Virus record (IMG/VR): IMGVR_UViG_3300006793_000044
Span: 1 to 53,147 of that record
Reading direction: 5' to 3' (one strand)
Origin: a virus
Lineage: Duplodnaviria > Caudoviricetes
Length of the DNA stretch: 53,147 bases
Each line of letters opens with the position of its first letter. Position 1 is the stretch's first letter. Shown in pieces: positions 12,701-31,121 of the stretch. The notes beneath the pieces were generated by a model. It searched no databases and had not been told where the DNA came from. It worked only from the letters and a program-made list of their open reading frames with translations. Position numbers and translations under genes: made by a program.

Positions 12701-13216
12701 GAGCTCACCCCTCTGTTTCAAGTGGGCAGGGAGATCTACGGAGATGAGGGAGAAGTGCTGTTTAGTGGTCTTGAAGCATCACTCGGTATGGCCCGGGAAA
12801 CAGAAGCATTAAAAGGGGCCAGCCCGATAGCAGGGCAATCTCGCACTGCATTTAATCAGCAAGCACGGACTAACACCAACCGCATGATTGCCATCTTTAT
12901 TGGGCCTCTGAGCCGTATTGGTACGAGGATCCGATCAGTTCTTGGAGGTGCAATCGAGAAGATGGACCCAGATTCACGCGCTATGCTGATCCGCCAAAAC
13001 ATTCTAGCTAATCCTGATGAGTACCTCGCTCTAGCCAGCAAATATAACAAAAATCCGAATGATCCTTTATTGGAAGAAACACTAATGTATTTCCTTGGAT
13101 CTGGCCTGATCAAAACGGACCTAGAGGCGGATGCTGAAGGTGTGCCGGGTATGTTCGAGGATGCACGGGGCGAAGTAAGCGAGGCAGCTGAAGCAATAAA
13201 TGCAGTAGTCCAATAA
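9764..13216 (+). CDS. Large internal virion (ejection) protein
   Basis: 1150 aa helical ORF ending the late operon. Confidence 0.65.
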   Translation: MSSAEEEALKKLGITLSPADAGEVTEEDLLKKLGIELPPPSFEAAFPTNMYDGLSLGEAMDRYKDIVYQKDENGEHTRELNPNIELVGNSHRFVREDGSDSLIPEPQTSLMGGARMLFGADPYDVTAKVGGLQILRKGIQESVSDLREADAAVLEKTGGADLLRSSPIGDQYPDDLVESAQEKAVNVDTGGTFFDALIADAGPAIIAGLPAGMGTVRALSVIPQTTSKVANVVLNTFKGLTATLTGETAATLTTGTDEGTLVMGPNATFPAFPDLVDLGDEEADRVIEHRLNTLTEGMALGGLVLSAIATTKAATTTAAQFLLNGFVTAAKGPEKAVYMQLSLELANLPPDANEAMLAEARQRVAKIVEDNKEVLVQSIRGMDQNQQVTIDTVSALLKGTDNQADRSNALGVRAGAMNIPGSPVVDAVDAPIAAVQQDLKLQAQELGGDTAAKQTAKLQEGAELLTDTARGSVDEVSGGLAQAQTKYDADYAKIMEGFDQDLEFTSMLDRLTAQYGTDLEGPATATRDRIKALLENAYVSQKTAKDSKYAAVSGGPIDAEAIIDQFEQINLGSITEAEILLKNNNGAVGRLHKLVQPKLVPDEAGEEGATRRETPEEVIDRVQEFMDNDPKLNFGFFYKDVRQEMSRLAAELFNRDRLLAGSEVRNFIRFIDNDMLDFVEQEGGDALAANAREAKRYFAEDYMFKSGGPGAPKSKLAEYAELYDSTLGRTNRQDLTATMTGGGFNRDAYDSSFEDLSTSWLEQGNRFDIAHLKKALSTLKGTDGGEIADYMVLKVLGRFALDARAGGIDGIDYGKLTSELGKYSSVLSANFPEKADLINGFLKRLETARGSQDELLKVLESTKASADKGIAQLQGSILTEFFDKSLTPQLKQIANSSEIFATSDPYKAFSGFFTGAETVSRMRQLLQAIEASPEANRPVIKDALKLAYNKFLDDKLIGRKLQTSGVTPMNVAPGEKAADELTPLFQVGREIYGDEGEVLFSGLEASLGMARETEALKGASPIAGQSRTAFNQQARTNTNRMIAIFIGPLSRIGTRIRSVLGGAIEKMDPDSRAMLIRQNILANPDEYLALASKYNKNPNDPLLEETLMYFLGSGLIKTDLEADAEGVPGMFEDARGEVSEAAEAINAVVQ

Positions 13217-13242
13217 AAAACCCGGGGGAGCAACCCCCGGGT
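13215..13242 (-). terminator. Rho-independent terminator (minus strand)
   Basis: Perfect stem ACCCGGGGG/CCCCCGGGT followed by a U run on the minus strand. Confidence 0.85.
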
Positions 13243-13284
13243 CTATATAGCAGCTCGGAGAACGACCAAGAACCCCTCGCTGCC
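13215..13284 (-). ncRNA. Putative trans-acting sRNA antisense to the GGAGAACGACCA RBS motif
   Basis: Promoter upstream, GGCAGC/GCUGCU stem enclosing UUGGUCGUUCUCCGA, terminator downstream, no ORF. Confidence 0.7.
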
Positions 13285-13287
13285 ACA

Positions 13288-13316
13288 ATCTTATCTTAGT
13301 AAGGCCCCCCGGTCAA
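13288..13316 (-). promoter_or_regulatory. Sigma70 promoter TTGACC-N17-TAAGAT
   Basis: Plus strand shows GGTCAA at 13311-13316 and ATCTTA at 13288-13293. Confidence 0.7.
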
Positions 13317-13340
13317 CTTATACCGGGAGGTCTTTTTTTT
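13302..13340 (+). terminator. Rho-independent terminator of the late operon
   Basis: AGGCCCCCCGGT/ACCGGGAGGTCT stem followed by a T run. Confidence 0.8.
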
Positions 13341-13450
13341 GTACCTTGTATCTATCAATACAATGTAAGGGCCTCAAACTAACGAACATCAAGGAGACCA
13401 ATCCTCGATACACTTAATAATTACCATACTAATTACCTTAGTGGAAGGGG

Positions 13451-13684
13451 CTAGCGTTCATTTATTTCCTCTACGCCCATTTTCCAAACGTAAATGGGTG
13501 TGTGTTCCCCGACATAAGCCCCAAGAGTATTGTGACTGAAAAACTCCTGCGCCTCATCTTGATCCATGCCACCTTCCATAAGTATATCCACGCATTTATC
13601 TGCGTCATAAACGATGATTTCGGGGGAGCCACAACGCTCCCCCACACCAATTATAGCTGCATCAAAACCGTCAGCGGTGAGCAT
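13451..13684 (-). CDS. Conserved phage hypothetical protein
   Basis: ADGFDAAIIG...EAQEFFSHNTLGAYVGEHTP; coupled to RNR gene. Confidence 0.75.
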   Translation of the reverse strand: MLTADGFDAAIIGVGERCGSPEIIVYDADKCVDILMEGGMDQDEAQEFFSHNTLGAYVGEHTPIYVWKMGVEEINER

Positions 13685-15426: not shown

Positions 15427-15920
15427 TTTTGCTCCCTCAATACTAAATCTGTTAAGTCTGCTTTTTTGTAATTTGGTCCTTTAAGAACCTTCCCGTCAGG
15501 CCTGAGTAACGGCTTACCGTTTGGCCCTAACTTGCTCATGTTTGCTGCGTGAATACGCCTCACAGCCTCGTCTAAATCCCACCCAAAAGTTGCCGCATAT
15601 AAGTAATCTGTATATACTAGGTCAGCTAACTCAGAGAGCATGGCTGCAGGGCGATTACCTGCCTCTCTCTCATCAGAAACCTCACCAAACTCTTCTGCAA
15701 TCAATCGGTATCTGAGGTCTTCCAAATCACGGTTAAACTTCCAGTTCTCATCAAGTGGCTGGCCCATTGCAGTGGCAAATTCTTTGACCATATCCAGTGG
15801 GGTACAATCCAAATATTCGTCTGCAGGATCATCAGGCAGGTCTTTTACTTGCTCATAGGCCTTAAGTATCTCTGCCAGCCGATCTTCTTCACAATCATCA
15901 ATATCCTGTTGAGTGATCAT
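15423..15920 (-). CDS. MazG-like/PRA-PH NTP pyrophosphohydrolase
   Basis: LIAEEFGE, ELADLVY, IHAANMSK, DGKVLKG motifs. Confidence 0.8.
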   Translation of the reverse strand: MITQQDIDDCEEDRLAEILKAYEQVKDLPDDPADEYLDCTPLDMVKEFATAMGQPLDENWKFNRDLEDLRYRLIAEEFGEVSDEREAGNRPAAMLSELADLVYTDYLYAATFGWDLDEAVRRIHAANMSKLGPNGKPLLRPDGKVLKGPNYKKADLTDLVLREQK

Positions 15921-16192
15921 CGTTCTGCCTCTAGTTTTTTAATAAGTCGATCCAAATACCAGCGGCACTTTTTTAAGTCCTCAAGGCCGTTTTTGTAGGG
16001 CCAGCGCCAAAGGTATTTGAAAGAATTTTGCCAGCAATATGCCTGATGGCTGGGTATATCCGCGCCTTCGGACATTGCTTCCATAGCCTCGATGCATTCT
16101 ATATTTGCAGAGTTATAATGAGGCGGCTTGTCCACCATATTTGCGTGAATAGGGGGAGACGGGTGCCAATCAGTTTCAGCCCATTTCGCCAT
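15917..16192 (-). CDS. DUF3310-family protein (T7 gp1.7-like)
   Basis: VDKPPHY, ECIEAM, KYLWR, KNGLEDLKKCRWYL. Confidence 0.85.
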   Translation of the reverse strand: MAKWAETDWHPSPPIHANMVDKPPHYNSANIECIEAMEAMSEGADIPSHQAYCWQNSFKYLWRWPYKNGLEDLKKCRWYLDRLIKKLEAER

Positions 16193-16524
16193 CAGTGGAT
16201 CCGGGTCTTTTTAAAGGGCACTATCTTGCCCTCGGCAAGGACATCTAAGAGCTCTTCATCTGGCTCGAATACAATCTCTGGCCCACCATCCTCTTTCCCC
16301 TCAATCAGAAGTCGCTGCAGAAGCCCTTGCCTGATCAGCAGCTCGGGGGCCGCATCCAGCATCATTTGCAAACCGAGTAAAAGATCTACTTGTATCTGGT
16401 ATTCGACCTCACCCACCTCTTCTTTTTCGAGATTGTGCTGGGTCATAACGCTCAGCTCGCCCTCTTCCATATCGATTTGAAAGGCGATCATTAGCGTGTT
16501 TTTGGGCAGATCAATCGGATCCAT
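16192..16524 (-). CDS. Hypothetical acidic protein
   Basis: Translationally coupled ORF in replication operon. Confidence 0.6.
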   Translation of the reverse strand: MDPIDLPKNTLMIAFQIDMEEGELSVMTQHNLEKEEVGEVEYQIQVDLLLGLQMMLDAAPELLIRQGLLQRLLIEGKEDGGPEIVFEPDEELLDVLAEGKIVPFKKTRIH

Positions 16525-16876
16525 TACGGGCTCCTTGTTTTAATAAATTGAAAAAGTAGGTGGCATCGACCACCGCTAAAGGCTGCTTACGGTCTGCCTT
16601 AATGATCACCTCTGGTTCCATGCCCTTTGGGGCATTGGCGATGGCCTGATCAACATAGCTGTACACCGCAATGCTTTTCCGGGCTTTGCACTCTATGGTG
16701 ATCCCCAGCAACCGTCTGGCAGCTGGAGATAGCAGCACATCCTCGCCATGAGCTCCCATAGGATTGCTTTTGCAGTCATCGAGCTCTAGCTCTTTGAACT
16801 TGGAAAGTATTTTCTTAGCAGTCCATTGCTGCAGCTTGCGCCCCTTGGCTTTTGCGGACGAAGTTTTAATCGGCAT
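16511..16876 (-). CDS. PD-(D/E)XK endonuclease/Holliday junction resolvase
   Basis: SAKAKGRKLQ...GEDV...IECK; start reassigned to MPIKT at 16876. Confidence 0.8.
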   Translation of the reverse strand: MPIKTSSAKAKGRKLQQWTAKKILSKFKELELDDCKSNPMGAHGEDVLLSPAARRLLGITIECKARKSIAVYSYVDQAIANAPKGMEPEVIIKADRKQPLAVVDATYFFNLLKQGARNGSD

Positions 16877-17726
16877 CGACGTACCATTTGTGCGGTGGGA
16901 ACTTGGCTTTAGATTCCGCTTGGGGTTTGTACTTCGCGCTGGGCCAACACGTTTTTTTAAAGCTGCAGAAACTACAGCTTTTACAGAGGATTTTCTTGCC
17001 GGTTTCTTTGCGCTGGAAGAACTCGTCTTCCGATTCGAAGCCCCTTTGAAAGCTCGCATCACTTTCTAGCGACCCCACGTTATGCTTGCGGCGAGCCCTG
17101 ATAGCTTTGCACTGAGCAGCGGTAGCTGTGACAGGCACCACCATCAGCTCCCCGGAGGATTTATCTACAACAATCCAACCACCGGGCGGCTTCTTTTGGG
17201 CATCCGCATAACCAAATAGCTGGCCAACGTAGCCAAAATCATCTTCTGCAAGCAGGGCATCAAAGCCCTTGCTCCATTTGTTTTTGTAGGCCCAAGGTGC
17301 GGAGGATTTAATGTCTAGAACCTTGCCCTCAATATCGATATCGCTCGATCCTTTGATGGTTGTTTCTGAGACTTTCATTGTCACATCATCACCGTCACTG
17401 GTGACATCAACCTTGGCTATGGTAAGCAGCATACGAGTGATGACTTCGACACAATCGCCGATCATCATCCTCATAATGTGATTGTAGGGGAACGGTTCAC
17501 GTTCCGCCCCAGACTTCTCCATTTGCAAAGTGCATAAGGGACGGCCCACATTAGACATGCGGACCCTAAAATCTTTATCGTGTTTTTGCGTGAGCTGTTT
17601 TTTGAAGGCTGCGACGAGTTGTTCAGCAGCGGCTTCAAATACCTTGGGATCTACGTCTGCAGTCTCTCCGTTGGAGAGAGACTGCATCAGACCTCTGAGT
17701 TCTAGCTCAAGGGTATCTAGGGCCAA
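16866..17726 (-). CDS. PD-(D/E)XK exonuclease (Cas4/RecB-like)
   Basis: RMSNVGRPLC, GSSD, DIKS, GYVGQL..Y, CKSCSFC...C. Confidence 0.8.
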   Translation of the reverse strand: MALDTLELELRGLMQSLSNGETADVDPKVFEAAAEQLVAAFKKQLTQKHDKDFRVRMSNVGRPLCTLQMEKSGAEREPFPYNHIMRMMIGDCVEVITRMLLTIAKVDVTSDGDDVTMKVSETTIKGSSDIDIEGKVLDIKSSAPWAYKNKWSKGFDALLAEDDFGYVGQLFGYADAQKKPPGGWIVVDKSSGELMVVPVTATAAQCKAIRARRKHNVGSLESDASFQRGFESEDEFFQRKETGKKILCKSCSFCSFKKTCWPSAKYKPQAESKAKFPPHKWYVDAD

Positions 17727-17728
17727 CC

Positions 17729-18547
17729 CTAGCTGCTGTGCTCAAGCGCGGAAGAATAACTGTTGTGCCCATTGCTGGGCTCATGATCGACTGTACCGAG
17801 AGCTGCATAATGCTTTTTCTTAATGCTGTCGTTTTCTTGGCGAGCCTGATCGTTAAACACTTTCAGGGTGGCCACGACATCAGAGGTTAACAGAGCAGGA
17901 GTATCATAGTCGATACCAAAGTTAGTGATGAAGGTTTTACCCTCCTTATGGGTATTCATATCCAGCCACACATCTCTTAGCTGTCTGCCCGACCCTTTGA
18001 GATTTTCTATCACCTTACCTAGCCCCATAAAGTTCATGCCCTTCATGTGAAACTGCACAGGCTCATTTTCAATGCGCTTTTTATCGCCATTTCGATCAAC
18101 GCCATCATAGCTCACAATACCACGCATAACTCTGGTACAAACAACGTCCTTATACTGCTTTCTCTCCGAGTCAGAGAACCCCGACCAAATTTTTGACTCT
18201 GGGCGTCCACAACGCAAACCACCAAGCATATCAATAGGATCTTGGCCTCGTTTATCCATCAAAATTGATTTGTTAATCATTTTAAAGTCTTCTGTGGACT
18301 GCTGTCTCCACTGAGTGTGCTGTAGCAACACTCTCATTTTGATGTTTTCAGCATATGCTGGGCTGGGCCCATGAACATAATACATACCCATACGAAGATG
18401 GGGCACTTCCATCATAAGGTCTGGGTCATATTGGATCTTCAGAAACGGTAATTTTATTACCGCTGTTTCATCTTGGCCTTGCTCAGCAAAGATGGCTGCA
18501 GCTTCGGCAAGTTCTTCTGGGGTAGCGAGTGTTGTGAGGTCAGTCAT
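17729..18547 (-). CDS. Putative single-stranded DNA-binding protein
   Basis: Lies between polymerase and exonuclease; D..GG.RCGRP motif. Confidence 0.55.
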   Translation of the reverse strand: MTDLTTLATPEELAEAAAIFAEQGQDETAVIKLPFLKIQYDPDLMMEVPHLRMGMYYVHGPSPAYAENIKMRVLLQHTQWRQQSTEDFKMINKSILMDKRGQDPIDMLGGLRCGRPESKIWSGFSDSERKQYKDVVCTRVMRGIVSYDGVDRNGDKKRIENEPVQFHMKGMNFMGLGKVIENLKGSGRQLRDVWLDMNTHKEGKTFITNFGIDYDTPALLTSDVVATLKVFNDQARQENDSIKKKHYAALGTVDHEPSNGHNSYSSALEHSS

Positions 18548-18597
18548 AGATTTTCCTATGTTTGATTAAGAGTATATATCTTACCTCAATACCTACC

Positions 18598-20724
18598 TTA
18601 ATTCAAGCTCACTTCCGACATCTCCATCCAGTTTTTTCCAACTTCCATTTCAATATCCAGAGGGATAGGCAACTTGTAGCCGAACCGTTCTTCAATCTCA
18701 TTTCCAATGTCTCGCATGGCCCAGACAGCGCATTCTTTGACCTGTTCAAGTTCCCCGGGGTAGATATCAATCACAATGCTATCATGCACGGTCAGGATCA
18801 GCTTAGAACGCAGATTACGCATTTTAAACGCTCTTAGAGCCCTCACACAGGCCAAGGGGACGATAGTCCCGGTGGCATGGCTTTGGACAGGAAAGTTAAC
18901 GATCTGGGTAGCCCCAGATACACGGCCATTTCTAAATCGTACTGCGTTTGGGAAGCTAAACTCGCGTCCGCATGGAATGCGAACTAAGCCATCCTCGATA
19001 ACGCCATCCATTAGCTTCTTATGCCACTTTTTTAGGCCAGAATAGATGTCGAAGTATGTTTTGAAGTATTCCTGTACGTGGGGGGCTTCTCCAGCCCCCA
19101 TGCCACCGTAGAGTGGCGCAAACGTGTAAGCTTTGGCAGCTTGGCGCATGGATTTAGTAACCTTATCCGCCGCACATTTATTAATAATCATTGCAGTCTG
19201 TGAATGAATGTCTTTGCCACTTTTTACATCGTCTAAGATCTGCTTATCCCCTGACAGGATCCCGGCAACGCGAAATTCTAGCTGGGAGTAATCAATCTCG
19301 CCTAATAGTCCGCCTTCAAAGCGACTAACCACAGCCTTACGCACTGGGAATTTACCGCCCTTGGGCTGGTTTTGGAAGTTGGGCCTACTAGAGCTTAGCC
19401 GACCAGTAGCAGTGGTGGTCTGATTAAAGTTTGCGTGTAGCAGACCGCTTGGCCGAGTGTGATTAGCAATGCCTTTTACAAACGAATTGAGATAAGTATT
19501 CAGAGCGTTTAATCGAGAGTATTTAGTCAGGAAGTTAATCGCCCGAGTGTTACTCTTACGCTCGGCTTGTACCAGCAATCGCTGAATAGTCATTTTGTCA
19601 GCCCGGAACCCGTTAGCTGTAGCATCAGCTGGGCCCTCGGGGATCAGCCCAAGACCCGCCTTTTTGGTGGTTGGTCTGTAGACCGCCCCAGAGCCCTCGC
19701 ACATCTTACACGCTGGCTGTCGCTTGTATGGATCTCCCTTTTTAGTGACTTTGTGCTGCTTGCCTGATCCAGAGCATAGGTCACAACGCTCTGCTATAGT
19801 CCTGTACGCCAGCTGCATGTTGCTTTTAACATGGAAGACCCACTCGCTATCAGACATCCGGGGAGGATATGTGGGACGGCCATCTGGACCTAACCCAATG
19901 TTAAACGCCTTGATAAAAGCTTTCTTATGGTAGTCACTTCTAAACTCGTACCCATAGATCAGGCGGGTCATATCCTGCCCCGAGGAGAGATTGGTGACTG
20001 TATCACCCATCACCTCGATGGTCTCTTTTTCAAGCTCTGTTTGTATTTCTTCTCGCTCATTCTCAAATAAAACACGCACTTGCGAAAGCGAATCCAGGTC
20101 GATGCAAATACCGTTTCTTTCGATCTCAATGAGAAACCAAGTCATTTCGTTCATCAGCTCAAAGGTGGGCCACAGCCCACTATTGTGCTCTTCTTTAAGG
20201 TCTGCAATTTGGGCTAGATATATTTCAGCGCAACTGATTACATCCGCCGCTGCATACTCCAAAACTATTTCTAAGGGCATCCGCTCAAAACCTACGCCCT
20301 GCGCGAACATCTCATCGATGAGTTCAGATTTTTTGCGTGTAACATTACGCCGCTCAGCTGTAGCTTTAAGACTTTTGCTTTGCTGTATGCCTCGGGCAAA
20401 AATGTACTCGCCTATCATTGTGCAATGCAGTTTCGCTGGCAGCACAAAGTCCATCTCAACCAGCCAAGTTACATCAAATTTTGTATTGTGGCACACAACT
20501 AAATCAGCCCTCAGTAAATCGTTTTGAAAAGGCTCTCGGCTATCTGGATGAGGCTGATCATTATGATACCATACGCTGTTTTTAACAGGCCCGAGGGTTT
20601 TACCATCCTCAATCATAAGCCATAACGCCATCACACAAGCATTCTCCTCATGCATGGCAGAAGGGTCCATGATGTCACCTAGAGGCGATACAGTCGTTTC
20701 TAAATCAAGGACACATACAATCAT
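18598..20724 (-). CDS. polA: Family A DNA polymerase with 3'-5' exonuclease and inserted DnaJ-like zinc finger
   Basis: DLET, HNTKFD, TATGRLSS, DYSQLEFR, R..AK...F..LYG, TVHDS; two CXXCXGXG motifs. Confidence 0.95.
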   Translation of the reverse strand: MIVCVLDLETTVSPLGDIMDPSAMHEENACVMALWLMIEDGKTLGPVKNSVWYHNDQPHPDSREPFQNDLLRADLVVCHNTKFDVTWLVEMDFVLPAKLHCTMIGEYIFARGIQQSKSLKATAERRNVTRKKSELIDEMFAQGVGFERMPLEIVLEYAAADVISCAEIYLAQIADLKEEHNSGLWPTFELMNEMTWFLIEIERNGICIDLDSLSQVRVLFENEREEIQTELEKETIEVMGDTVTNLSSGQDMTRLIYGYEFRSDYHKKAFIKAFNIGLGPDGRPTYPPRMSDSEWVFHVKSNMQLAYRTIAERCDLCSGSGKQHKVTKKGDPYKRQPACKMCEGSGAVYRPTTKKAGLGLIPEGPADATANGFRADKMTIQRLLVQAERKSNTRAINFLTKYSRLNALNTYLNSFVKGIANHTRPSGLLHANFNQTTTATGRLSSSRPNFQNQPKGGKFPVRKAVVSRFEGGLLGEIDYSQLEFRVAGILSGDKQILDDVKSGKDIHSQTAMIINKCAADKVTKSMRQAAKAYTFAPLYGGMGAGEAPHVQEYFKTYFDIYSGLKKWHKKLMDGVIEDGLVRIPCGREFSFPNAVRFRNGRVSGATQIVNFPVQSHATGTIVPLACVRALRAFKMRNLRSKLILTVHDSIVIDIYPGELEQVKECAVWAMRDIGNEIEERFGYKLPIPLDIEMEVGKNWMEMSEVSLN

Positions 20725-21929
20725 GCCTCATACCTCGCTATGTCGGCATCGAGGCTACAGACAACTTGCCCATGCCACCCGGTCAGTTTGTTCTTGGAAA
20801 CAGTGAGTGTCCGCATAGGATCGAGCGGAGTGCCTGATTTAGAGATACCGATGATGAAGTCGGCTTCAGCAGCCTTACCAATCTTGGAACCTTCCATGTG
20901 GGTGTAGTCAAGATAGCTTACATTTGTGGCTGAATTTGATGCTTGCGAAACGCCTATTAAGGCACAATCGTAGCGCTTTGCTGTCTCTCGAAGACGCCTA
21001 TAAAGCTCTCGTAATCTCTCATGCGTGGCAGCGAAGTTACCAGAGATATGAACCTTGTCAGCCTGATCCACCCAAACCACTGCAGGTTTCTCTTTTTTAA
21101 TGTAACGCTCGATCATGGTAAGATCCCAATCTTGCGCTCCTCGGGCCTCAAAGAGGCCTTGTGTTTGCTCTAAGAATGCGGCTTGAGCTTCTGTCTGATA
21201 CTGCTCTATGCGTTTATCGTCCCAGCCTGTGACTGATTGATAGGCGCGTTGCAAAGTACGATCTATTGCTTCCTCATTGCCTAGCACCAACGTCTTATAC
21301 CCGTTTTCAGTAAAACCCCCCGGGCCTACAGACAAACTGACTACAAAGCTTGTTTTCCCGGCATTTGGTACGGCAAAGACAACACCAAATTCTTTTCGGC
21401 CCACACCCGGAAGGTGCCGCGCTAACGTGGAGATATTAAAGGGTATGACAGCATTATTAAACTTTGAGGCAAATACGTCTTCAACAAGTAAACTAGCCTT
21501 CGGGCCAAACTCGTCCTCGTAATAGCCCTCAAGGCCAAGCTCAGCTAAATCCAATACCTCAGACAATGCGCTGGAATTGCCTTCGGCAATCTCAAGCCCT
21601 TTGTTTGCAATCTTCTTACCGAGATCTCGCATGTGCAACAGCTTAATAGTGTCAGCTACCATTGCTGGATTGAGCTCATCAGCGTAGCTGATTGAGCGGA
21701 TCAAGTTCTCAGCTTCTTCAGTAAAAGCCCGAGTGGCTACCGGGTGCTGCACTTTCCACAACATGATCAGTTCAGCTGTGGTAATGTCCGTTTCGTATTT
21801 CTCATGGGCTTTTTTTAGTATGCGATAAAGCGTTTTCAGTTCATCTCCAAAAAGAGATTCGTTGAGCTTACTTGCGTTCTCCATGTAAAATTCATGGTTA
21901 CACAAACTCCGTATAATTGATAAATCCAA
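20721..21929 (-). CDS. DnaB-like (SF4) replicative helicase
   Basis: Walker A AVPNAGKT, GNEE, VDQADK, GVSQ, KNKLTG; TTG start. Confidence 0.9.
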   Translation of the reverse strand: MDLSIIRSLCNHEFYMENASKLNESLFGDELKTLYRILKKAHEKYETDITTAELIMLWKVQHPVATRAFTEEAENLIRSISYADELNPAMVADTIKLLHMRDLGKKIANKGLEIAEGNSSALSEVLDLAELGLEGYYEDEFGPKASLLVEDVFASKFNNAVIPFNISTLARHLPGVGRKEFGVVFAVPNAGKTSFVVSLSVGPGGFTENGYKTLVLGNEEAIDRTLQRAYQSVTGWDDKRIEQYQTEAQAAFLEQTQGLFEARGAQDWDLTMIERYIKKEKPAVVWVDQADKVHISGNFAATHERLRELYRRLRETAKRYDCALIGVSQASNSATNVSYLDYTHMEGSKIGKAAEADFIIGISKSGTPLDPMRTLTVSKNKLTGWHGQVVCSLDADIARYEA

Positions 21930-21990
21930 GCTTTGACCCCTACAGTGTGAGCTACTAAGGTAGCTTTCATAACACAGTGAGGCCGAATCA

Positions 21991-22020
21991 AAAAGCCCCC
22001 GCTGAGTGGCGAGGGCTATT
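21991..22020 (-). terminator. Probable terminator
   Basis: AGCCCTCGC/GCGGGGGCT stem followed by U run on the minus strand. Confidence 0.6.
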
Positions 22021-22039
22021 TATTTTAATCTTAGATAAT

Positions 22040-22243
22040 TTAAGAGGTACGGATTTTAAGCTTACGCAAGTCTGGTTTTTGATCCCCCCGGCGCTCTTTG
22101 ATGTCACACTGGAAATAGGTAACCCTGTTGTTACCCCTTACGAGCTCTTCCATTGCAGTTTGTAAGCGCTTTTGCTCTTCGGCGGCGTCCATAAATCCAT
22201 TAGGTAGATCATAGTCTACCAAGATTAATCCTCTAGCTTTCAC
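22040..22243 (-). CDS. Hypothetical protein
   Basis: GTG start with purine-rich RBS; followed by terminator. Confidence 0.65.
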   Translation of the reverse strand: MKARGLILVDYDLPNGFMDAAEEQKRLQTAMEELVRGNNRVTYFQCDIKERRGDQKPDLRKLKIRTS

Positions 22244-22556
22244 GTTTTTGTCTCTTTCCTAATTAATTTTATCAGCCAGCGACCCAACGTGCATTGTTTC
22301 CATGTCTAGGCATCCAATCGTCTTGGTCGCATTATTTCGAAGTTGTTTCAAAATTGATACGCTTAACGGTGGGGCTATTGGTCCGTTCGCCCAAACGGTG
22401 GTTGCGCCACATGCTGCAACAGAGGGCGTAGTAATCGCCGATAACGCCAACATACGTTGCATAGCTTGTTTTGCTGGAGTTGATTGCCGACCACAACTAA
22501 CGTAGGCTGTGTGTCGCTGATCTAACAAAGGAGGCGATATTTTACGTGTTCGCATA

Positions 22557-23351
22557 CTAACGTGTCTCCCACACTGCCAATGTTGTCTTAATTTGATCTT
22601 CATTAAGATACTTTAGATCTTCCGTTAAGTAACGCACTCTAGTCTTTACTCTTGATTCTAGCTGACTTGCCAAATCTACACTCTTTCTTGATGCGTCCTG
22701 ATCTAATGCCACAACTACTTCCTCATAGCACGTTAACTGATGTATCATTACTGGTGATAATCTAGTTCCAAGTAAAGCGCAACCAGAACAAAATGGCAAC
22801 CTGCTCACGGAGCAAGCTGACGCTATGTCTTCTACAACCACAAGGATACTTCCATTACCAACAATCGAGGGCCTATCCATAATGCCATACTCTAGCCATT
22901 TTGGCTTGTCAGGGCCCAAGGCCCTGCCTACAGCGGAGTACTTATCATTAGGTAAAGAGAATAAAACCCGGTCAACTGCCGGGGCATATCTAATATGTAT
23001 CAGGCCACTTTCATGGGCCTCATAGCAATGGTTATCTTTCAAGTATTGGATCACTGCCGGGTGGGCACCCGGCGCAGATAACACCCTCGGTAAATCTCTA
23101 CTATTTTGTGATATTGAAACCATCCTATCTCCCCCCAGCTTCGCTTTTATGGCATTTGTTGAATACCCTACAGACTTGCTACCTTTGACGCCACAGCTGG
23201 CCCTAAAACAGCCCCACAAGCGCTTACCGTCTTTCCTAGTAATAGAGAAGGTCTTGCTGCCCCCACAAAAGGGGCAGTCAATGCGTTTAGTTTCGTTTTC
23301 CCGGAGCTCAATTGGCTCTAAAAGGCTAAGTTGATCACGGTAGCTGTACAT
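22557..23351 (-). CDS. DNA primase (zinc finger + TOPRIM)
   Basis: CPFC...CFRASC zinc finger; VVEDIASA and ALDQDA TOPRIM motifs. Confidence 0.9.
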   Translation of the reverse strand: MYSYRDQLSLLEPIELRENETKRIDCPFCGGSKTFSITRKDGKRLWGCFRASCGVKGSKSVGYSTNAIKAKLGGDRMVSISQNSRDLPRVLSAPGAHPAVIQYLKDNHCYEAHESGLIHIRYAPAVDRVLFSLPNDKYSAVGRALGPDKPKWLEYGIMDRPSIVGNGSILVVVEDIASACSVSRLPFCSGCALLGTRLSPVMIHQLTCYEEVVVALDQDASRKSVDLASQLESRVKTRVRYLTEDLKYLNEDQIKTTLAVWETR

Positions 23352-23451
23352 GTAGTTATTTTACCTCTTTACCTACCTCTACAATGGTAATAGTACCATA
23401 ACATGCCCTATTTTAGAGGCTAAGTCATTGATGACAAACGATAAATCAATT

Positions 23452-23490
23452 ACCTGAAGGTCGTAGGTTCAAATCCTACTCCCGCAACCA
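23452..23490 (+). other. attP core: 3' part of a tRNA-fMet(CAT) gene
   Basis: ACCTGAAGGTCGTAGGTTCAAATCCTACTCCCGCAACCA gives variable loop, T-arm, 3' acceptor strand and CCA; no 5' half. Confidence 0.85.
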
Positions 23491-23620
23491 ACGTAATAAT
23501 ATCAATGGGTTACGGCCCGGTACATGAGAATAAGCTGCCGTTTCATGTACCAGTACTTTGTACATTTCTGTACATGCTTACTACTTTAGGTGAGTTTTTA
23601 GCTATAAGCATAGTGTTACC

Positions 23621-23803
23621 TTAAGGCTGCTTTGATTCGTTTTGCAGTGTTTCTTGTGCCCACGCCATAGCGGTGCAGATATCGTTCCACTGTTCATCAT
23701 GCATTTCATCACCCTCGGGTATGCAATCTTCACGATATCCTTGCAGCGCATCCCAGATAGTATTAAGCCAACTTTCTGTGTTAGATTTTGTAAGCTCAGT
23801 CAT
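23621..23803 (-). CDS. Conserved phage hypothetical protein
   Basis: WDALQGYREDCIPE...QWNDICTAMAW; ATG at 23803 after GGAG. Confidence 0.7.
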   Translation of the reverse strand: MTELTKSNTESWLNTIWDALQGYREDCIPEGDEMHDEQWNDICTAMAWAQETLQNESKQP

Positions 23804-24011
23804 CAGCTTGCTCCTCAAAAACTAGCCCCGTTGTATGCTCGTATAATATACCCGCTACGATTTCGGTGGCATCTGCACTTGATGTAACGTCAAACGCTTC
23901 AAAGAAATCTATATTCAAGGCATAGGTCGCTGCAGCTATCATCTCGACGTTAGTCGTGCTGGTTTTACGTGCTTCCGTAAGGGCTGCAATGATGGTTTCT
24001 TTATTAGTCAT
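23796..24011 (-). CDS. Hypothetical protein
   Basis: Coupled ORF flanked by 17 bp direct repeats. Confidence 0.6.
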   Translation of the reverse strand: MTNKETIIAALTEARKTSTTNVEMIAAATYALNIDFFEAFDVTSSADATEIVAGILYEHTTGLVFEEQADD

Positions 24012-24238
24012 CAGCTTGCTCCCCAAGTTAGAACCACACCCACATTTGATAGGCTACCGCCTTGTGGGCGATAAGCTGCACCAATCCAATCAGCATCCCC
24101 ACCAGTGCGTACAACCCTCCAACCTGTGCTACATTTATACCCATAAGTCCGTAGGGTCTTTAGTTCTGAGCTGGTCAGATTTCGCCCCTTGCCGCCCATA
24201 GGTATCGAGCTGTTTAAAATATCTAGTCGTTCTGCCAT
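24011..24238 (-). CDS. Hypothetical protein
   Basis: GGAG RBS; coupled ORF. Confidence 0.55.
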   Translation of the reverse strand: MAERLDILNSSIPMGGKGRNLTSSELKTLRTYGYKCSTGWRVVRTGGDADWIGAAYRPQGGSLSNVGVVLTWGAS

Positions 24239-24353
24239 TTCTTACTCCTTTTCCCTCTTTTATCCGTTTCATTGCACACACACCACATGTGTATGTACCG
24301 TCAGGCTCACGTATCACAGCTGCAGCTGGGCATGTACCGCACTTAATCGTCAC
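24135..24353 (-). CDS. Small zinc-ribbon protein
   Basis: CGTC...CGVC motif; likely GTG start at 24353. Confidence 0.45.
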   Translation of the reverse strand: MTIKCGTCPAAAVIREPDGTYTCGVCAMKRIKEGKGVRNGRTTRYFKQLDTYGRQGAKSDQLRTKDPTDLWV

Positions 24354-24547
24354 ACCCCTGTACCCATCCACAATTTAAGCTCAGCTTGTGCTTTGCTAAG
24401 TTTAATATCAAGAGCTTTGGCTTTCCTTTCCCAATGCTCTTCGCTTGCCCTTAAAGATCTGATCTCTTTAGTGAGCTTATCGATCTCCAGCTGATAGAAT
24501 TGATCTTTATGAGTCATTAGCAAACTTTCTTTGCTCGAGTGCGTCAA
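24350..24547 (-). CDS. Small coiled-coil protein
   Basis: Heptad-rich ORF in the same operon; start uncertain. Confidence 0.55.
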   Translation of the reverse strand: MTHSSKESLLMTHKDQFYQLEIDKLTKEIRSLRASEEHWERKAKALDIKLSKAQAELKLWMGTGV

Positions 24548-24746
24548 AGGCTAATGAGAGGCAGCGCAGCTGCTCTCCCATGCCCTTCTGCACAGACCCG
24601 GTAAATAGGGCCTTGCGGGTTCCTACAGGGGCTTCACCAGCTATAAGCGCAAAGGTAGCGTTACCTCGATGAGGATCCTCTGACAGTTCGAATGTAACAT
24701 GGCCCACAGACCATTGCTCACGCTTGATTGCTCTGCTTGTACTCAT
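24507..24746 (-). CDS. Hypothetical protein
   Basis: ATGA overlap with upstream gene. Confidence 0.6.
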   Translation of the reverse strand: MSTSRAIKREQWSVGHVTFELSEDPHRGNATFALIAGEAPVGTRKALFTGSVQKGMGEQLRCLSLAFDALEQRKFANDS

Positions 24747-25099
24747 GCTGCTAATGCTTCCTTTCCAATTTGTGTTATTGCGTACCCAGTGGATGGTCTT
24801 TCACCAACTTTGAAAGCCAACGATTTGTTCGTTAGAGCAGACAGCATTGATGAAGCTGCGCGGTGGTGGCAATTAAGCTCCCCGGCAATCTCTTTTGCGT
24901 TGCGAGGCGCAACATTGAGTATCTCAAGAATATTCCTTGCAAAGTTACCCAATGGTGCCTTGGGGCGGTGTTGAATATCACATGGCAGAGGCCCTCTGAG
25001 GGGCTTGCCATCGATGCCTTTAGTGTTGTGCTGAAGCCTCTCAAAGGCCAACATATCTTGTGACAACTGCTCGTCACGTTTAGCAATTAAATCTTTCAT
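24743..25099 (-). CDS. Winged-helix (MarR-like) DNA-binding protein
   Basis: AKEIAGELNCHHRAASSMLSAL...GYAITQIGKEAL pattern. Confidence 0.65.
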   Translation of the reverse strand: MKDLIAKRDEQLSQDMLAFERLQHNTKGIDGKPLRGPLPCDIQHRPKAPLGNFARNILEILNVAPRNAKEIAGELNCHHRAASSMLSALTNKSLAFKVGERPSTGYAITQIGKEALAA

Positions 25100-25255
25100 T
25101 CAGTGATCCACCTCATATTCTTCGCCCACAGACATGGCTGCACGAATGTGATTTAGCCGCTCTATCGTTTCGATACCGTGGTATGTCTCGCCAAACTGTT
25201 TGGCATCAGCTTGAGTACCAGCCCATTTGCCTAGCCCGTTTGAATATAGTTTCAT
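25100..25255 (-). CDS. 51 aa hypothetical protein (not in ORF track)
   Basis: MKLYSNGLGKWAGTQADAK...; preceded by AAGGAGAACGACCA. Confidence 0.7.
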   Translation of the reverse strand: MKLYSNGLGKWAGTQADAKQFGETYHGIETIERLNHIRAAMSVGEEYEVDH

Positions 25256-25276
25256 TGGTCGTTCTCCTTTGGGGTA

Positions 25277-26413
25277 TTAATCGCCATACACTTTGTTAAT
25301 TATTTGATTGGCTCGTTTTTTAGAGCGGTGAAGATACGGGGAAAGGCCCTCACGGGTCATGTGGCCAGTGACCGCCATCATCTGATCTTCAGTGGCGTCT
25401 CGATCAGCTATGTAACTGATGCCACTGCGTCTAAAATCCCCAAAGCGAATGGATTGCGGGAGCCCTACCTCGTCCATCACCTTGCGAGCGTCATGGTAGT
25501 AATAACGATCATAAGGCTGCAGAAATTTGTCGCTAAGAAAGATAAAATTAGTCACGCTAGGTGGACGTATCCTTTTAGCGATCTCATGCACCTCACGGTG
25601 CCATTTAATGCGCTCTCGAAGCTCTCTTGGCAGCTCGAACCAGCATTCTGCCCCAGTTTTCTCTTGAGTAAAATCAAGATTAATCAGGCCCTCGGTATCT
25701 ACCCGTAAATGGTTATCATTTATGTTGTCCCATTTAAGCTGTCGTATATCTCCGGGACGCTGGCATAGGCGGAAGCAGAACAAAGCCATAGACCCCAAAG
25801 TGTAGTTGTAGGTATTATCTGCGTGTTTCACAAAATCTAACAACTGGCGATCTGTCCACGCAGCCTTACGTGGTTTTGGTTTCGCCACCCGTTGGTTCTG
25901 CCAAGGGTTGAGTTCCACACCACAAGTGTCATCCTCATCCTGCAGAGCTACGTTCCAAATCAAGCGCAATATTTTACATAATGTGTAGGCACTATTACCA
26001 TCCTCAGTCGCAGCAAAATGATTAATAAATAACCTAGCAGACTTACGTGTTACATTAGTTATGGCCATATCACCGAATTTACTACCGTCCGGGAGATGTC
26101 TGCTTTCAGATGACTTTTTCATCTGCCCTAAATAACTGGTCTTACTGTTTTCCTTGATTGTCCTAAATTCTTGAGTAGTGATATACCACTTGAACAGATC
26201 ATCTACAGTTTCTGCTGAAACGGTACTAAACGATTGTTTATAAACAGATGTTTTTCGTCTTTCAACCTCTTCGGCAAAGGCCAAAGCATCCGTTTCAGTA
26301 TTAAATGTCGATGTGCTTAAACCCGTAGATTTTTTTACATCTGCTGGTAATTGAACAATGTACGCAAACGTACCATCACGCCGTTCACGTACTTTTGGCC
26401 TAATTTTTGACAT
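25277..26413 (-). CDS. int: Tyrosine recombinase/integrase
   Basis: QRPGDI, QEKT, DFRRSG, TGH, catalytic Tyr in SPYLH. Confidence 0.9.
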   Translation of the reverse strand: MSKIRPKVRERRDGTFAYIVQLPADVKKSTGLSTSTFNTETDALAFAEEVERRKTSVYKQSFSTVSAETVDDLFKWYITTQEFRTIKENSKTSYLGQMKKSSESRHLPDGSKFGDMAITNVTRKSARLFINHFAATEDGNSAYTLCKILRLIWNVALQDEDDTCGVELNPWQNQRVAKPKPRKAAWTDRQLLDFVKHADNTYNYTLGSMALFCFRLCQRPGDIRQLKWDNINDNHLRVDTEGLINLDFTQEKTGAECWFELPRELRERIKWHREVHEIAKRIRPPSVTNFIFLSDKFLQPYDRYYYHDARKVMDEVGLPQSIRFGDFRRSGISYIADRDATEDQMMAVTGHMTREGLSPYLHRSKKRANQIINKVYGD

Positions 26414-26625
26414 ATTTTCATCTCCTCTTGGTCGCAGACTCTTACATTAGTAGCTACCTGAGTCAGATGTCAAATGAAAAATAAAATTCACTAAGGTATT
26501 TACAAATGTACCTAAGAGCAGTACCCTGCGAGGGTCTTAGCCCGAGCTATACCTATATAGACTTGCTTTTTAGGCCCACCGCCCCTGAAGGGCGGTTGGC
26601 CCCCAATAAAATACATACAAAGCAA

Positions 26626-26650
26626 TAAAAAAGGGCCCCAAAGGGCCCCT
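26626..26650 (-). terminator. Terminator (minus strand)
   Basis: GGGCCC/GGGCCC stem with A run on plus strand, i.e. U run on minus. Confidence 0.65.
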
Positions 26651-26661
26651 AATTTGATATA

Positions 26662-26835
26662 TTAATGATCTTTATCAGGAGGATCATTTTCATCAGCTAA
26701 TCTATCAATATAAAGTGTCGGATTAGGCTCATCCTTCATTTCATATATAGCGTTGGCCGCTTGGGAGGTTTGAAATGGATCTTCTAGAAAGTTTATGGCG
26801 TCAGCCCGTGATTTAAACAGCACAGTCGTAGTCAA
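26662..26835 (-). CDS. 57 aa acidic hypothetical protein (not in ORF track)
   Basis: TTG start after GAGGGG; MTTTVLFKSRADAINF...; followed by terminator. Confidence 0.45.
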   Translation of the reverse strand: MTTTVLFKSRADAINFLEDPFQTSQAANAIYEMKDEPNPTLYIDRLADENDPPDKDH

Positions 26836-26949
26836 CGATATTACCCCTCAGTACCTAGTAAGACTTCGGCATACAATGTTACCGCAATCAAAACAAGCGT
26901 CGAGTCATAATTATTTTCACGCGCGTCTTGTATAGTAGTAGGAATTAAT

Positions 26950-27030
26950 GTAGTAGTTGTGTACCCGAAAGGGCATTGCACTACTCCTCCCCTACTTGCC
27001 CTCCCAGTTCCCAGCTGGGGGGGTTTTTTT
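26950..27030 (+). ncRNA. Putative sRNA with anti-SD CUCCUCCCC motif
   Basis: CCC-GAAA-GGG GNRA hairpin, single-stranded CUCCUCCCCU, strong terminator with T run, no ORF. Confidence 0.5.
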
Positions 27031-27241
27031 GTTCACGCACGTCTTTTCCACATAAATCAAAGATAAAACAGGTACTTAATATTAATGTGATATTAGTATG
27101 CAAACAAACACAAATCAGAAAATAACTGATTAAATTACTTTTTGATGTCGTTATTAATCCTTTGACTCTGCTTATCTAATGTATTTTAAAGAGCTTAGGG
27201 TCTCGCAAGCCCGATTAAAACTAATACGGAGAACGACCATA

Positions 27242-27943
27242 ATGCAGCTATTAAATACCAATGAGTCCAACACCAAAATAAGAAAAAGCGCGAGCGGTAC
27301 TATCTACCGAATCGCTAGCCTATCCCTATATCCTGACATTCTGACTTGCCCGGGATCAGCTCTGGCTAATTGTATGGATGCTTGTTTAAAATCAGCTGGC
27401 CGGGGGCAAATGCAAAGCGTTGTTACCGCCAGACAATCTAAAACTGATCTTTATCATAACGACCCGGAGCGCTTTTTTGAGCTTCTAAACGATCAGTTAT
27501 TTGCTTTCGAGCGCTCTTGCGCTCGCCAAGGCAAAACACCGCTAGCCCGGTTAAACACAATTTCAGATATACCTTACGAAAAGCACGGGATCCCACAAAA
27601 CCACCCTAATATCGGTTTGTACGACTACACCAAACTAGCCTCGAGACTCGGCAGGACACCACCAAATTACAAATTGATGTTTAGCTATTCAGCTGAACCA
27701 AAATATCAAAACAGTGTGGCAATGGCATTAAAAACTAATTGCCCGGTGGCCGTAGTATTCCGGGGTGGATTGCCAAAGGTCTTTTTAAATCGCCCGGTAA
27801 TTGATGGTGATAAATCCGACATTGTGAACTTCAATTCTGGCGCTGTTGTCTTGGGTCTCAAGCTTAAAGGCCCCCGGCGGATCCAGACCATGAAAACAAA
27901 TTTCATAGTGGATAATCCAGAGCTCGAGAGGATAGCAGCATGA
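27242..27943 (+). CDS. gp88-like protein
   Basis: CP......C...CL...GRG, RLNTISD, YDYTK motifs; start reassigned to ATG after GGAGAACGACCA. Confidence 0.75.
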   Translation: MQLLNTNESNTKIRKSASGTIYRIASLSLYPDILTCPGSALANCMDACLKSAGRGQMQSVVTARQSKTDLYHNDPERFFELLNDQLFAFERSCARQGKTPLARLNTISDIPYEKHGIPQNHPNIGLYDYTKLASRLGRTPPNYKLMFSYSAEPKYQNSVAMALKTNCPVAVVFRGGLPKVFLNRPVIDGDKSDIVNFNSGAVVLGLKLKGPRRIQTMKTNFIVDNPELERIAA

Positions 27944-28623: not shown

Positions 28624-28788
28624 GCTATTTTTATATGCTAGTTGGTTTCTTTGCGTTCTGGTATTTCATAGCGCAATCAATACCATTTTAAAATTACGCT
28701 TGTAACGCTCGCAATGTTACACTAATAAAAACATTAAGAGCGGAATCTCTGCTCTTAATTAAACCTTAACAAGTACGGAGAACGACCA

Positions 28789-29700
28789 ATGCCAGATCTT
28801 ATCTATTCGCGGAGTGCATCCGCTAGCGAGCTGCCTTTAAGCGCTATTCATAGCAAGGCGAGCGCTGCTTTCACTGAACTACCAATCGAAGGCGTATCAA
28901 AAAACTATGGTCATTTACGCACCATAGATCTGCTCCCGGTATTAAAAGACTATGGATATCTCCCGGTGCAAGCAGCGCAAACCAGCGCACGGAAAAAAGA
29001 CAAAATCGGCCACCAGAATCACATGTTAGCGTTTGCTCATGAAAATGATCTAATGCAGCCAAGCGATGGCCGCCCGGAGATAATAATCTATAATTCAAGC
29101 GACAGATCGAGCGCTTTAAAATGTTTTGCCGGGTATTTCCGGGGAATATGCAGCAATGGGCTAGTTGCTGGTGATGGGTTCCAGAGTAAAGTGTACCACA
29201 ATATCAAAAATATCATGAGCTTTGAGGATCAATTACGCGATATGATAGCGAGATTGCCCGAAATGTTGGGCTTAGTTGATAAAATGAAAGGCACGTTAAT
29301 CGACGGCCAGACCGGGCTCGAGATAGCAGAATCTGGGGCAAGCTTGCGCTGGGCCAATTGGGAAAAAGAGCAGTTTCGGGCTTGGAATACGGCCAGAAAA
29401 GCAGAAAAGAACTTTAACGATATCGAGCTTGCCCGGGGGTCATACTACACGGATCAAACTATTTCGGATTTGCTCGACAGCAAACGCCCGGGCGAGCGTT
29501 CCTTAGAAAAACAAACTGCGAGCTTATGGCACGTATTTAACCGGGTTCAGGAAGGATTGATTCGCGGCAAAACGGAAATCCAGAGCGTCAGCAATTTGCG
29601 CCCGTCAGGCACCACTCGCAAAGCAACCGGGCTGACCAGCGTCCCGAAAAGCGTGAAAGTAAACCGGGAATTTTGGGATTGTGCGGCAGCCTATGCTTAA
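28789..29700 (+). CDS. DUF932-family protein
   Basis: PEIIIYNSSD.SS....AG.FR.ICSNGL and SLW..FNRVQE motifs. Confidence 0.8.
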   Translation: MPDLIYSRSASASELPLSAIHSKASAAFTELPIEGVSKNYGHLRTIDLLPVLKDYGYLPVQAAQTSARKKDKIGHQNHMLAFAHENDLMQPSDGRPEIIIYNSSDRSSALKCFAGYFRGICSNGLVAGDGFQSKVYHNIKNIMSFEDQLRDMIARLPEMLGLVDKMKGTLIDGQTGLEIAESGASLRWANWEKEQFRAWNTARKAEKNFNDIELARGSYYTDQTISDLLDSKRPGERSLEKQTASLWHVFNRVQEGLIRGKTEIQSVSNLRPSGTTRKATGLTSVPKSVKVNREFWDCAAAYA

Positions 29701-29827: not shown

Positions 29828-29901
29828 TTTGATTAACTGCAATTAATACCCTAACAATTAACTTACTGGGAACGGATCCCGGCAATATCGGAGAACGACC
29901 A

Positions 29902-30261
29902 ATGCAATTAATCACTAATGAAATCAGAATACAGCTCGAGCTTAACTATATCGAGAATCAAAAAGCAGAAATGAGCGATTACGACTTTGACCCCCGGCCA
30001 GTGGTAAAGCTCTTTAATCCGTGCGGATCTCAGACTTGGTTACTTACTGAGATCGAGCCTAAAACTAACAACGCTTTCGGGCTTTGTGATATGGGCATGG
30101 GATCGCCAGAGCTTGGCTATGTATCGATTACGCAACTTGCAGAGATCGAGATTCCGGGTTGGCGCAATATGGGAATAGAGCGCGATATTCACTTTAACCC
30201 GGTCATGACCATCTCAGAATATGCGGATCAAGCCCGTGAAACCGGGAGTATTGCAGCATGA
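29902..30261 (+). CDS. DUF2958-family protein
   Basis: PVVKLFNP.G..TWLLTE, FGLCD.G.G.PELGYVS, IERD.HF. Confidence 0.85.
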   Translation: MQLITNEIRIQLELNYIENQKAEMSDYDFDPRPVVKLFNPCGSQTWLLTEIEPKTNNAFGLCDMGMGSPELGYVSITQLAEIEIPGWRNMGIERDIHFNPVMTISEYADQARETGSIAA

Positions 30262-30819: not shown

Positions 30820-31121
30820 CTCTGGATCTGGAAAGCTTCAAGCTCCCGGCGCACTGGGCTAGCCCCTTAATCAATGGTGATATCTCTGGTCTATCAATTA
30901 AAGAGTGTCGCCAGCTCGACTCTTTCGAGACTAAAATGCTAAAAAAATATGGCAGCTGCCATGCAATAGATTGCAGCAGCGAACCGCATTTTATGAAGTA
31001 TCATGATGCCCATATGTTTGGTGTTCTGGCGTGTGACGTTTTGGAATTTACTTTTGATGTCACTGGTCAAGAGGAACAAGGAATGTATTGCACGCATTAC
31101 GACCCGGAGTCAGACCAATGA
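30816..31121 (+). CDS. Conserved phage hypothetical protein
   Basis: LPAHWAS.LINGD.SGL motif; coupled ORF. Confidence 0.7.
   Translation: MTLDLESFKLPAHWASPLINGDISGLSIKECRQLDSFETKMLKKYGSCHAIDCSSEPHFMKYHDAHMFGVLACDVLEFTFDVTGQEEQGMYCTHYDPESDQ

Follow-up and report, generated by a model that had tools for sequence, protein, structure and literature searches.

Genome organization and features of the locus

The DNA analysed here (hereafter the window) is a full genome record of 53,147 bp with a G+C content of 46%. Its sequence identifies it as a complete temperate marine podovirus (53 kb) of the HMO-2011 type, within the CRP-3 subgroup. Its DNA polymerase shares 54% identity with that of Roseobacter phage CRP-3, other HMO-2011-type podoviruses being weaker matches, and the two phages have the same gene order; their integrases are 28% identical. 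HMO-2011-type phages are described as a dominant and widespread marine viral group (PMC9038755).

The leftward unit comprises the integrase gene int, small ORFs, primase, helicase, PolA, a Cas4-like nuclease, RusA, a kinase, MazG, and ribonucleotide reductase, in this order. It stops at ~13.4 kb and faces a convergent late (+) operon with its end at 13216. A Pfam scan of 40 ORFs revealed no repressor-like protein, which leaves room for an RNA-based immunity. The features of interest are compiled in Table 1.

Table 1. Coordinates of the features discussed in the text (position 1 is the first letter of the window)
Feature	Position	Strand	Remarks
Tyrosine integrase gene, 378 aa	25277..26413	-	Start ATG 26413-26411; from ORF list; PHROG 1 integrase, E 1.7e-37
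Candidate int promoter, TTGACA-N18-TAATGT	26444..26473	-	TTGACA invariant; -10 is TAATGT in 7/10, TAAGGT in 3/10
int leader site GCGACCAAGAG, complementary to sRNA loop	26425..26435	-	-22 to -12 from AUG
Shine-Dalgarno sequence GAGGAG of int	26422..26427	-	First 3 nt within predicted duplex; invariant in 10/10
Predicted sRNA, ~70 nt	13213..13283	-	HP2 and loop, then terminator hairpin and U run; both ends predicted
sRNA promoter, TTGACC-17-TAAGAT	13288..13316	-	Called by scan; -35 in loop and 3' arm of HP1
Hairpin HP1	13305..13330	-	Complement plus T run terminates the convergent late (+) operon (+ strand terminator 13308-13327)
Hairpin HP2, 12-nt loop UUCUUGGUCGUU (13272-13261)	about 13286-13247	-	Predicted transcription start at foot of HP2
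sRNA terminator hairpin	13244-13218, U run 13220-13215	-	Called by scan
Box GGAGAACGACCAATG, 51-aa gene just downstream of int	25253..25267	-	Exact box found 3' of int in each of the 10 matching related loci
Exact box, start of DUF932 gene	28777..28791	+	Box scan
Exact box, start of DUF2958 gene	29890..29904	+	Box scan
Box variant GGAGAACGACCATAATG, first gene of rightward early operon (GP88 family)	27228..27244	+	Likely true start ATG 27242
Box variant GGAGTCAGACCAATG, 72-aa ORF	31106..31120	+	ATG 31118

A tRNA 3' fragment consisting of variable loop, T arm, acceptor strand, and CCA lies at 23452-23491 (+), between the small ORFs that follow int and the primase gene. It occupies the same map position in three CRP phages; 38 nt (23454-23491) are identical in CRP-3 and CRP-235, and the fragment of CRP-212 carries a compensated change in the T stem. 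Four metatranscriptomes showed a depth spike of 167-389 at this fragment, with contigs diverging on both sides. Integration of CRP-3 into a host tRNA-Met gene has been reported (PMC6918029). The fragment of the window very likely represents attP, 1.8 kb downstream of int; if so, integration separates the replication genes from the int promoter. The conserved region upstream of int was considered as attP and rejected in view of the position of the tRNA-Met fragment. The word CGACCAAGA of the leader was similarly rejected as an integrase arm-type site, as it has a single copy near int and none near attP.

A predicted small RNA gene and the boxes on early genes

At the 3' end of the leftward int-replication operon, a small gene with its own sigma-70-like promoter would encode an RNA of one hairpin with an exposed loop, followed by a terminator. 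Folding of the minus strand of 13345-13205 gives three hairpins (z = -4.9), and none of 200 shuffled sequences was equally stable. Opening of the 11-nt loop costs 1.6 kcal/mol. The same architecture was found in 10 IMG/VR contigs with a common 20-nt hairpin core, which were retrieved via the exact 20-mer (a search in which the loop was left free gave eight of those same contigs). Furthermore, it occurs in CRP-3, CRP-212, CRP-235, and CRP-738, at the same convergent junction, and in three more contigs reached via other genes.

All 15 related sequences tested carry a promoter of the consensus-based form TTGAC[CT]-17/18-TAnnnN, located immediately 5' of the hairpin and 13-21 nt from the loop core. 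This core, UUGGUC, is kept across lineages on stems without common sequence (GAAAAG/CUUUUC, GGAAUGG/CCAUUC, AACGGGG/CCCCGUU, and others), and the HP2 stems covary among the relatives. Owing to G-U pairs, the RNA of the int strand is the more stable one in seven of eight hairpins. A terminator hairpin was seen by eye or by folding in all 15 relatives, including the CRP phages and three IMG/VR contigs; a strict U-run pattern matched 12 of 15 sequences and missed L007, L008, and CRP-3, which have weaker tails. RNAalifold predicted 17 pairs, six of them with compensatory changes, all in the terminator helix; as the underlying MAFFT alignment of the 10 sRNA genes misaligned the middle hairpin, hairpins were then compared singly.

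No Rfam family matched the window at gathering score, and a search with 13150-13480 gave only sub-threshold matches at or overlapping the terminator hairpins. Contig sets from four marine metatranscriptomes covered 12500-27200 sparsely, with a depth of 0 to 1.4 in the bin 12991-13481; such contigs give neither strand nor RNA ends and decide neither way. Taking promoter, hairpins, and their conservation together, the sRNA gene is probably real.

Several further structures were observed around this gene and elsewhere. Late (+) transcripts through 13213-13335 would end beyond HP2 and thus include the exact antisense of the entire sRNA; this antisense could serve as a sponge or be a substrate for RNase III. 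A second hairpin at 13386-13411 (-), located in an insertion unique to the window among 11 aligned genomes, has a loop with AUUGGUCU that fully matches the variant box AGACCAAU at 31112-31119. In CRP-738, the hairpin together with its 3' flank is similar to this second hairpin, for which neither a separate promoter nor a separate terminator was observed. At 26940-27030 (+), a strong plus-strand terminator (26998-27024) follows the C/U-rich stretch CUCCUCCCC, which is complementary to Shine-Dalgarno sequences. This segment could encode another small RNA; the relatives are unaligned over it, the chosen coordinates being shifted by indels.

The exact hairpin 20-mer also matched one Photobacterium scaffold (L040). 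The region concerned (8600-8830) belongs to a lambdoid prophage, in the interval from CI/Cro-like genes to RecT/YqaJ, and contains five TGGTCGT repeats; two of these lie in hairpins, one with 20 nt identical to the hairpin of the window, and a terminator follows. As that genome has no int relative, box, or matching tRNA fragment, the scaffold was rejected as a relative and is probably unrelated. One exact match is about what chance would give in 596 Gb, yet the hairpin extends there by three more pairs, and it may be a chance match or a distant analogue.

The loop and the 3' half of the HP2 stem are complementary to a box, GGAGAACGACCAAUG, at the ribosome binding sites of four or five early genes, 13 nt of the box being the perfect complement of UUGGUCGUUCUCC. 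The exact box GGAGAACGACCAATG is found at the starts of three genes, namely the 51-aa gene after int and the genes for DUF932 and DUF2958. The core CGACCAA occurs 12 times against 4.1 expected, a number reached by none of 100 shuffles, and the 15-mer box with up to three mismatches occurs seven times against 1.0 expected. The variant upstream of the gene at 31118, to which the sequence-only reading had pointed, was found as described (Table 1).

At the GP88 box, GGAGAACGACCAAAAATG is read in four aligned relatives (L001, L015, L017, and L018) and again in L053, a second record of the L001 contig. Both the conserved box and the relatives suggest that ATG 27242 is likely the real start of the GP88-family gene. 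The first ATG of its ORF, at 27179, falls inside a conserved promoter-like word, CTAATGTA. In more distant loci from IMG/VR (L067-L132, with the GP88-like gene; 47-57% identical), other words recur before the GP88 start, e.g., CACACCAATAACGACGAGTGTATAAATG and TATAAGGAATCGAGACAATG, and these subgroups may have start-associated boxes of their own.

The box on early genes differs from one related phage to the next, and the sRNA of each phage carries the complement that fits its box, extending to a second block 5' of the Shine-Dalgarno sequence: AUCUAACUU stands opposite AAGUUAGAU in CRP-3, CUAAACUU opposite AAGUUUAG in CRP-235, and UUACUAGCUAAAC opposite GUUUAGCUAGUAA in the G005 type. In a matrix of five sRNAs against five box sets, the latter chosen by their GACCAA core, the energies on the diagonal ranged from -26 to -31 kcal/mol and those off the diagonal from -12 to -23 kcal/mol, with the diagonal best in each row and column. 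The sRNA thus pairs best with the boxes of its own phage in five of five phages, and three further contigs agree by eye. This co-variation alone does not prove pairing between RNAs, since any DNA motif is necessarily complementary to an inverted copy of itself.

The integrase leader and its predicted pairing with the loop

The int leader reads AGUCUGCGACCAAGAGGAGAUGAAAAUAUG on the minus strand of 26440-26411, and in its wider context TTGACA-N18-TAATGT-AAGAGUCUGCGACCAAGAGGAGAUGAAAAUAUG. Inspection of the sequence alone had led to the claim that this leader can pair with the loop of the sRNA, and that the pairing reaches into the Shine-Dalgarno sequence. Both statements hold: GCGACCAAGAG (26435-26425, minus) and UUCUUGGUCGU (13272-13262, minus) form an unbroken duplex of nine Watson-Crick and two G-U pairs, which overlaps the first three nucleotides of GAGGAG (26427-26422). 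The int site also uses the 5' part of the loop (UUC) left unused by the other start-site targets, as had been proposed. Its core CGACCAA is a rearranged copy of the box core and lies upstream of the Shine-Dalgarno sequence. The AUG at the end of the leader string quoted earlier (26421-26419) does not begin int, whose ATG at 26413 lies 8 nt downstream in a different frame; the upstream AUG is present in only four of 10 relatives.

The promoter candidate noted earlier just upstream is present, with TTGACA at 26473-26468, a spacer of 18 nt, and TAATGT at 26449-26444. It was left uncalled by a consensus promoter scan, because its -10 element fits the consensus at only three of six positions. The transcription start predicted from it would place the pairing site a few nucleotides from the 5' end of the int mRNA. 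Further upstream, at 26475-26660 (-), the 150 nt that separate the preceding terminator (26650-26631) from the int promoter hardly vary, even among relatives whose int is 68% identical. A strong hairpin (26573-26601) lies in this stretch along with several AGGTA/TACCT words, of which one pair is inverted around CATTTGTAAAT; the stretch may be an operator region for a DNA-binding regulator.

In the initial comparison, the part and length of the loop were freely choosable; with the 12-nt loop alone, the int leader gave the best duplex of 63 start regions, at -17.1 kcal/mol, followed by -13.4 kcal/mol for the next. Among 2000 shuffled loops, -17.1 kcal/mol was matched on any start region in 0.7% and on int in 0.05%. 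A match by chance is unlikely. When both strands of the genome were scanned, only the complement of the sRNA gene itself also reached -17 kcal/mol. By simple counting, 12 other genome sites pair unbroken across 11 nt, two of them with 10 Watson-Crick pairs (46720-46730 within the capsid gene, and 11940-11950 antisense to a tail gene), so that the int match is unusual mainly by its location. After correction for accessibility, the energy was -12.9 kcal/mol for int versus -13.6 to -14.4 kcal/mol for the three exact start-site boxes. The int value comes near to those of the boxes because the int site requires no opening of the stem. An 11-bp helix in a 12-nt loop would be strained and workable only with a free 5' end of the target, and hence would depend on the predicted transcription start.

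A second copy of GCGACCAAGA had been noted at 22321-22330 (minus), and it is indeed there, within an ORF. The one relative contig that spans this region has no second exact same-strand copy of the 9-mer CGACCAAGA; this unconserved copy within an ORF indicates that stray copies exist.

The int leader was compared among the window and nine relatives with integrases 68-94% identical. Across these 10 clade sequences, one of the 11 columns of GCGACCAAGAG varies: CGACCAAGAGGAGAU is invariant, and the preceding base is G in three and A in seven, either of which pairs with U. Outside the Shine-Dalgarno sequence, one of eight columns of the site is variable compared to eight of 16 other leader columns (five of eight just upstream of the site and three of eight in the spacer; Fisher one-sided P = 0.087). 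The invariance is weak evidence, because clade members share ~94% identity over the entire 171 nt upstream of int, even those whose int is only 68% identical. The loop is the same in all 10 sRNA contigs, which leaves no compensatory changes to score. Only the window holds leader and sRNA on one contig.

Outside the clade, in each of the four cultured relatives, pairing between the sRNA and the int leader of the same phage was not stronger than with shuffled leader sequences (CRP-3, P = 0.52; CRP-212, 0.59; CRP-235, 0.40; CRP-738, 0.09). The conservation of the leader that the sequence-only reading had put forward as a check was found in part: the site is kept in 10/10 clade members save for the G/A exchange, but the four cultured relatives are without complementarity between int and sRNA. 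Additionally, no box was found at the int leader or start in 11 of 12 further int-bearing loci. With none of four CRP phages and only one of these loci positive, the link to int is not ancestral. In the one exception (contig L059, int 27% identical), the int start directly follows the full ~27-nt box of that phage. GACCAA occurs five times in this locus, each time in a start-associated box; four of these boxes belong to early genes and the fifth to int. An integrase has thus joined the box-bearing set at least once elsewhere. In a DNA search of a phage collection, neither the int region nor the sRNA region was matched, an int profile search of bacterial genomes had zero matches, and a wider int profile in IMG/VR gave no loci beyond the two already known.

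Interpretation and comparison with known systems

In the mechanism that we propose, the loop would bind the int leader by a contact between loop and 5' end, with an 11-bp duplex running into the Shine-Dalgarno sequence. Binding would lower int translation or destabilize the int message, together with the other box-bearing early genes, and integration and excision would be tied to the same post-transcriptional control as the early genes. We infer both transcription starts, the RNAs as drawn, the direction of repression, and any effect on Int. Sequence and predicted pairing make int a plausible clade-specific target, and we hold the reading in which the sRNA binds its leader and reduces Int synthesis along with that of the early genes tentatively, at a little less than even confidence. 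The earlier suggestion that integration and excision are coupled to one RNA switch is partly supported: the conserved sRNA-like gene, the complementarity of its loop to the int leader, and the int box of L059 are in its favor, but none of the four CRP phages shows the pairing with int.

It is possible, although our judgement leans against it, that the int match is functionless, that the sRNA regulates only the exact start-site boxes, and that CGACCAAGAG in the int leader arose by chance or is a leftover of leader-cassette recombination. The box is missing from the int leaders of four cultured relatives and from 11/12 other int-bearing loci; moreover, conservation extends over the whole upstream region, so that the site could stay unchanged without selection of its own, and the contrast in conservation reached only P = 0.087. 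The copy at 22321-22330, within an ORF and with its exact 9-mer lacking a same-strand match in the one spanning relative contig, and the 12 other unbroken 11-nt sites in the genome fit the same view. A functionless match is at odds with the rarity of equally good shuffled loops (0.7% on any start region, 0.05% on int) and with the placement of the site exactly where pairing could block the ribosome. Further points against it are that the sole variable base still pairs, that the unrelated int of L059 bears a full box, and that the net energy at int is close to that of the exact boxes.

The two remaining explanations dispense with a base-pairing regulator. The box, including CGACCAA of int, may be read by a RegA-like RNA-binding protein of phage or host or by the ribosome, with the 13.2-kb hairpin being a late-strand decoy or irrelevant and int being co-regulated without RNA-RNA pairing. 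The register of the box to the start codon is fixed in every phage, as in the start-associated sequences of Cluster K, the late (+) strand crosses the hairpin before its terminator and so would present a mimic of the box in the late 3' UTR, and inverted DNA copies account for the co-variation without pairing. We consider such a reader improbable, as a conserved promoter points into the hairpin on the int strand in 15/15 sequences, G-U pairs stabilize the hairpin on this strand and leave it weaker on the other in 7/8, and a terminator hairpin follows on the int strand. Besides, the int core lies upstream of the Shine-Dalgarno sequence, unlike the boxes, which suits a short antisense loop but not obviously a protein that recognizes a fixed box. 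Very unlikely, in our opinion, is the absence of any sRNA, with 13213-13345 being back-to-back terminators between convergent operons and the hairpins purely structural. The region does lie between convergent operons, two of its three hairpins were called as terminators, one per strand, and no Rfam family was matched at gathering score. The middle hairpin, however, is not a terminator and yet keeps its UUGGUC loop across unlike stems, has a conserved promoter at constant spacing in front of it, and has flanks that co-vary with the start-site boxes.

A broader and unlikely version of the proposed control is that one ~70-nt RNA runs the control of early genes and integrase alike. Its loop would read the box where each of the two early operons begins, at the first gene, and on int in some lineages, and convergent late transcription would yield an antisense RNA that removes the sRNA, giving an RNA toggle between lysis and lysogeny. 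A box-reading phage sRNA, if true, would provide a testable circuit of lysogeny control in phages of ocean bacteria that are hard to culture. We found no published account of int or early-gene control in HMO-2011-type phages and, in the literature searched, no paper linking HMO-2011 with small RNAs or sRNAs, and a trans-acting sRNA controlling a phage integrase was not among the matches listed in the literature. Neither an sRNA nor a promoter is mentioned in the two genome papers (PMC9038755 and PMC6918029).

The start-associated sequences (SAS) and extended SAS (ESAS) of Cluster K mycobacteriophages are similar to the boxes in several respects (PMC3203893). There as here, a short asymmetric motif includes the Shine-Dalgarno sequence and lies a few nucleotides from the start codon of some non-structural genes, and the extended part of the motif differs between subgroups (PMC3203893). 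Four of these phages have a single inverted copy, and the authors left open whether the reader is RNA or protein (PMC3203893); the window likewise has one inverted copy, in the sRNA gene, in addition to four or five boxes at early-gene starts. Host phylum and phage type differ, and the 13-bp consensus GGGATAGGAGCCC is unlike the box GGAGAACGACCAATG, which makes the boxes an analogue by feature rather than a member of the family. An integrase leader with an SAS is not described in the accessible part of that work (PMC3203893). Furthermore, unlike in Cluster K as described there, the inverted copy of the window is located in a hairpin loop within a promoter-terminator unit, which suggests an antisense reader. 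If true, a box-reading sRNA would offer one possible solution to the question of which factor recognizes the start-associated sequences of other phages, and the logic of the toggle, if that were true, would explain these sequences, each with a lone inverted copy.

Phage-encoded RNAs with a comparable logic are the c4 RNA of P1 and P7 and the CI RNA of satellite P4. Both are small RNAs whose exposed loops pair with several short sites on early transcripts, including a ribosome binding site, and shut down early functions; they are processed from the transcript that they control and have a fold similar to a tRNA precursor. To our knowledge, they do not target an integrase. The RNA predicted here would similarly direct an exposed loop against several early-gene sites and shut early functions, but it would be one simple hairpin with its own promoter, targets in both early operons, and no Rfam match.

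For int, the predicted geometry is the one of IS10 RNA-OUT and RNA-IN, in which the very 5' terminus of the recombinase message is bound by a hairpin loop that covers its ribosome binding site, and the free 5' end lets the helix between loop and linear RNA extend. RNA-OUT comes from the strand opposite its target, in cis, and matches it completely across tens of nucleotides, whereas the candidate regulator in the window is encoded 13 kb away, would pair over 11 nt, and would have other targets too. The sib site of lambda, a cis-acting RNase III site downstream of int that involves no base-pairing regulator and is linked to the position of attP, is likewise a case of post-transcriptional integrase control via RNA structure, located at the far end of the int transcript. 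In the window, by contrast, the candidate regulator would be a separate transcript, and the probable attP lies 1.8 kb downstream of int. With no curated family matched, the putative regulator resembles the c4 and P4 CI RNAs in its logic and IS10 RNA-OUT in its geometry, by analogy in either case.
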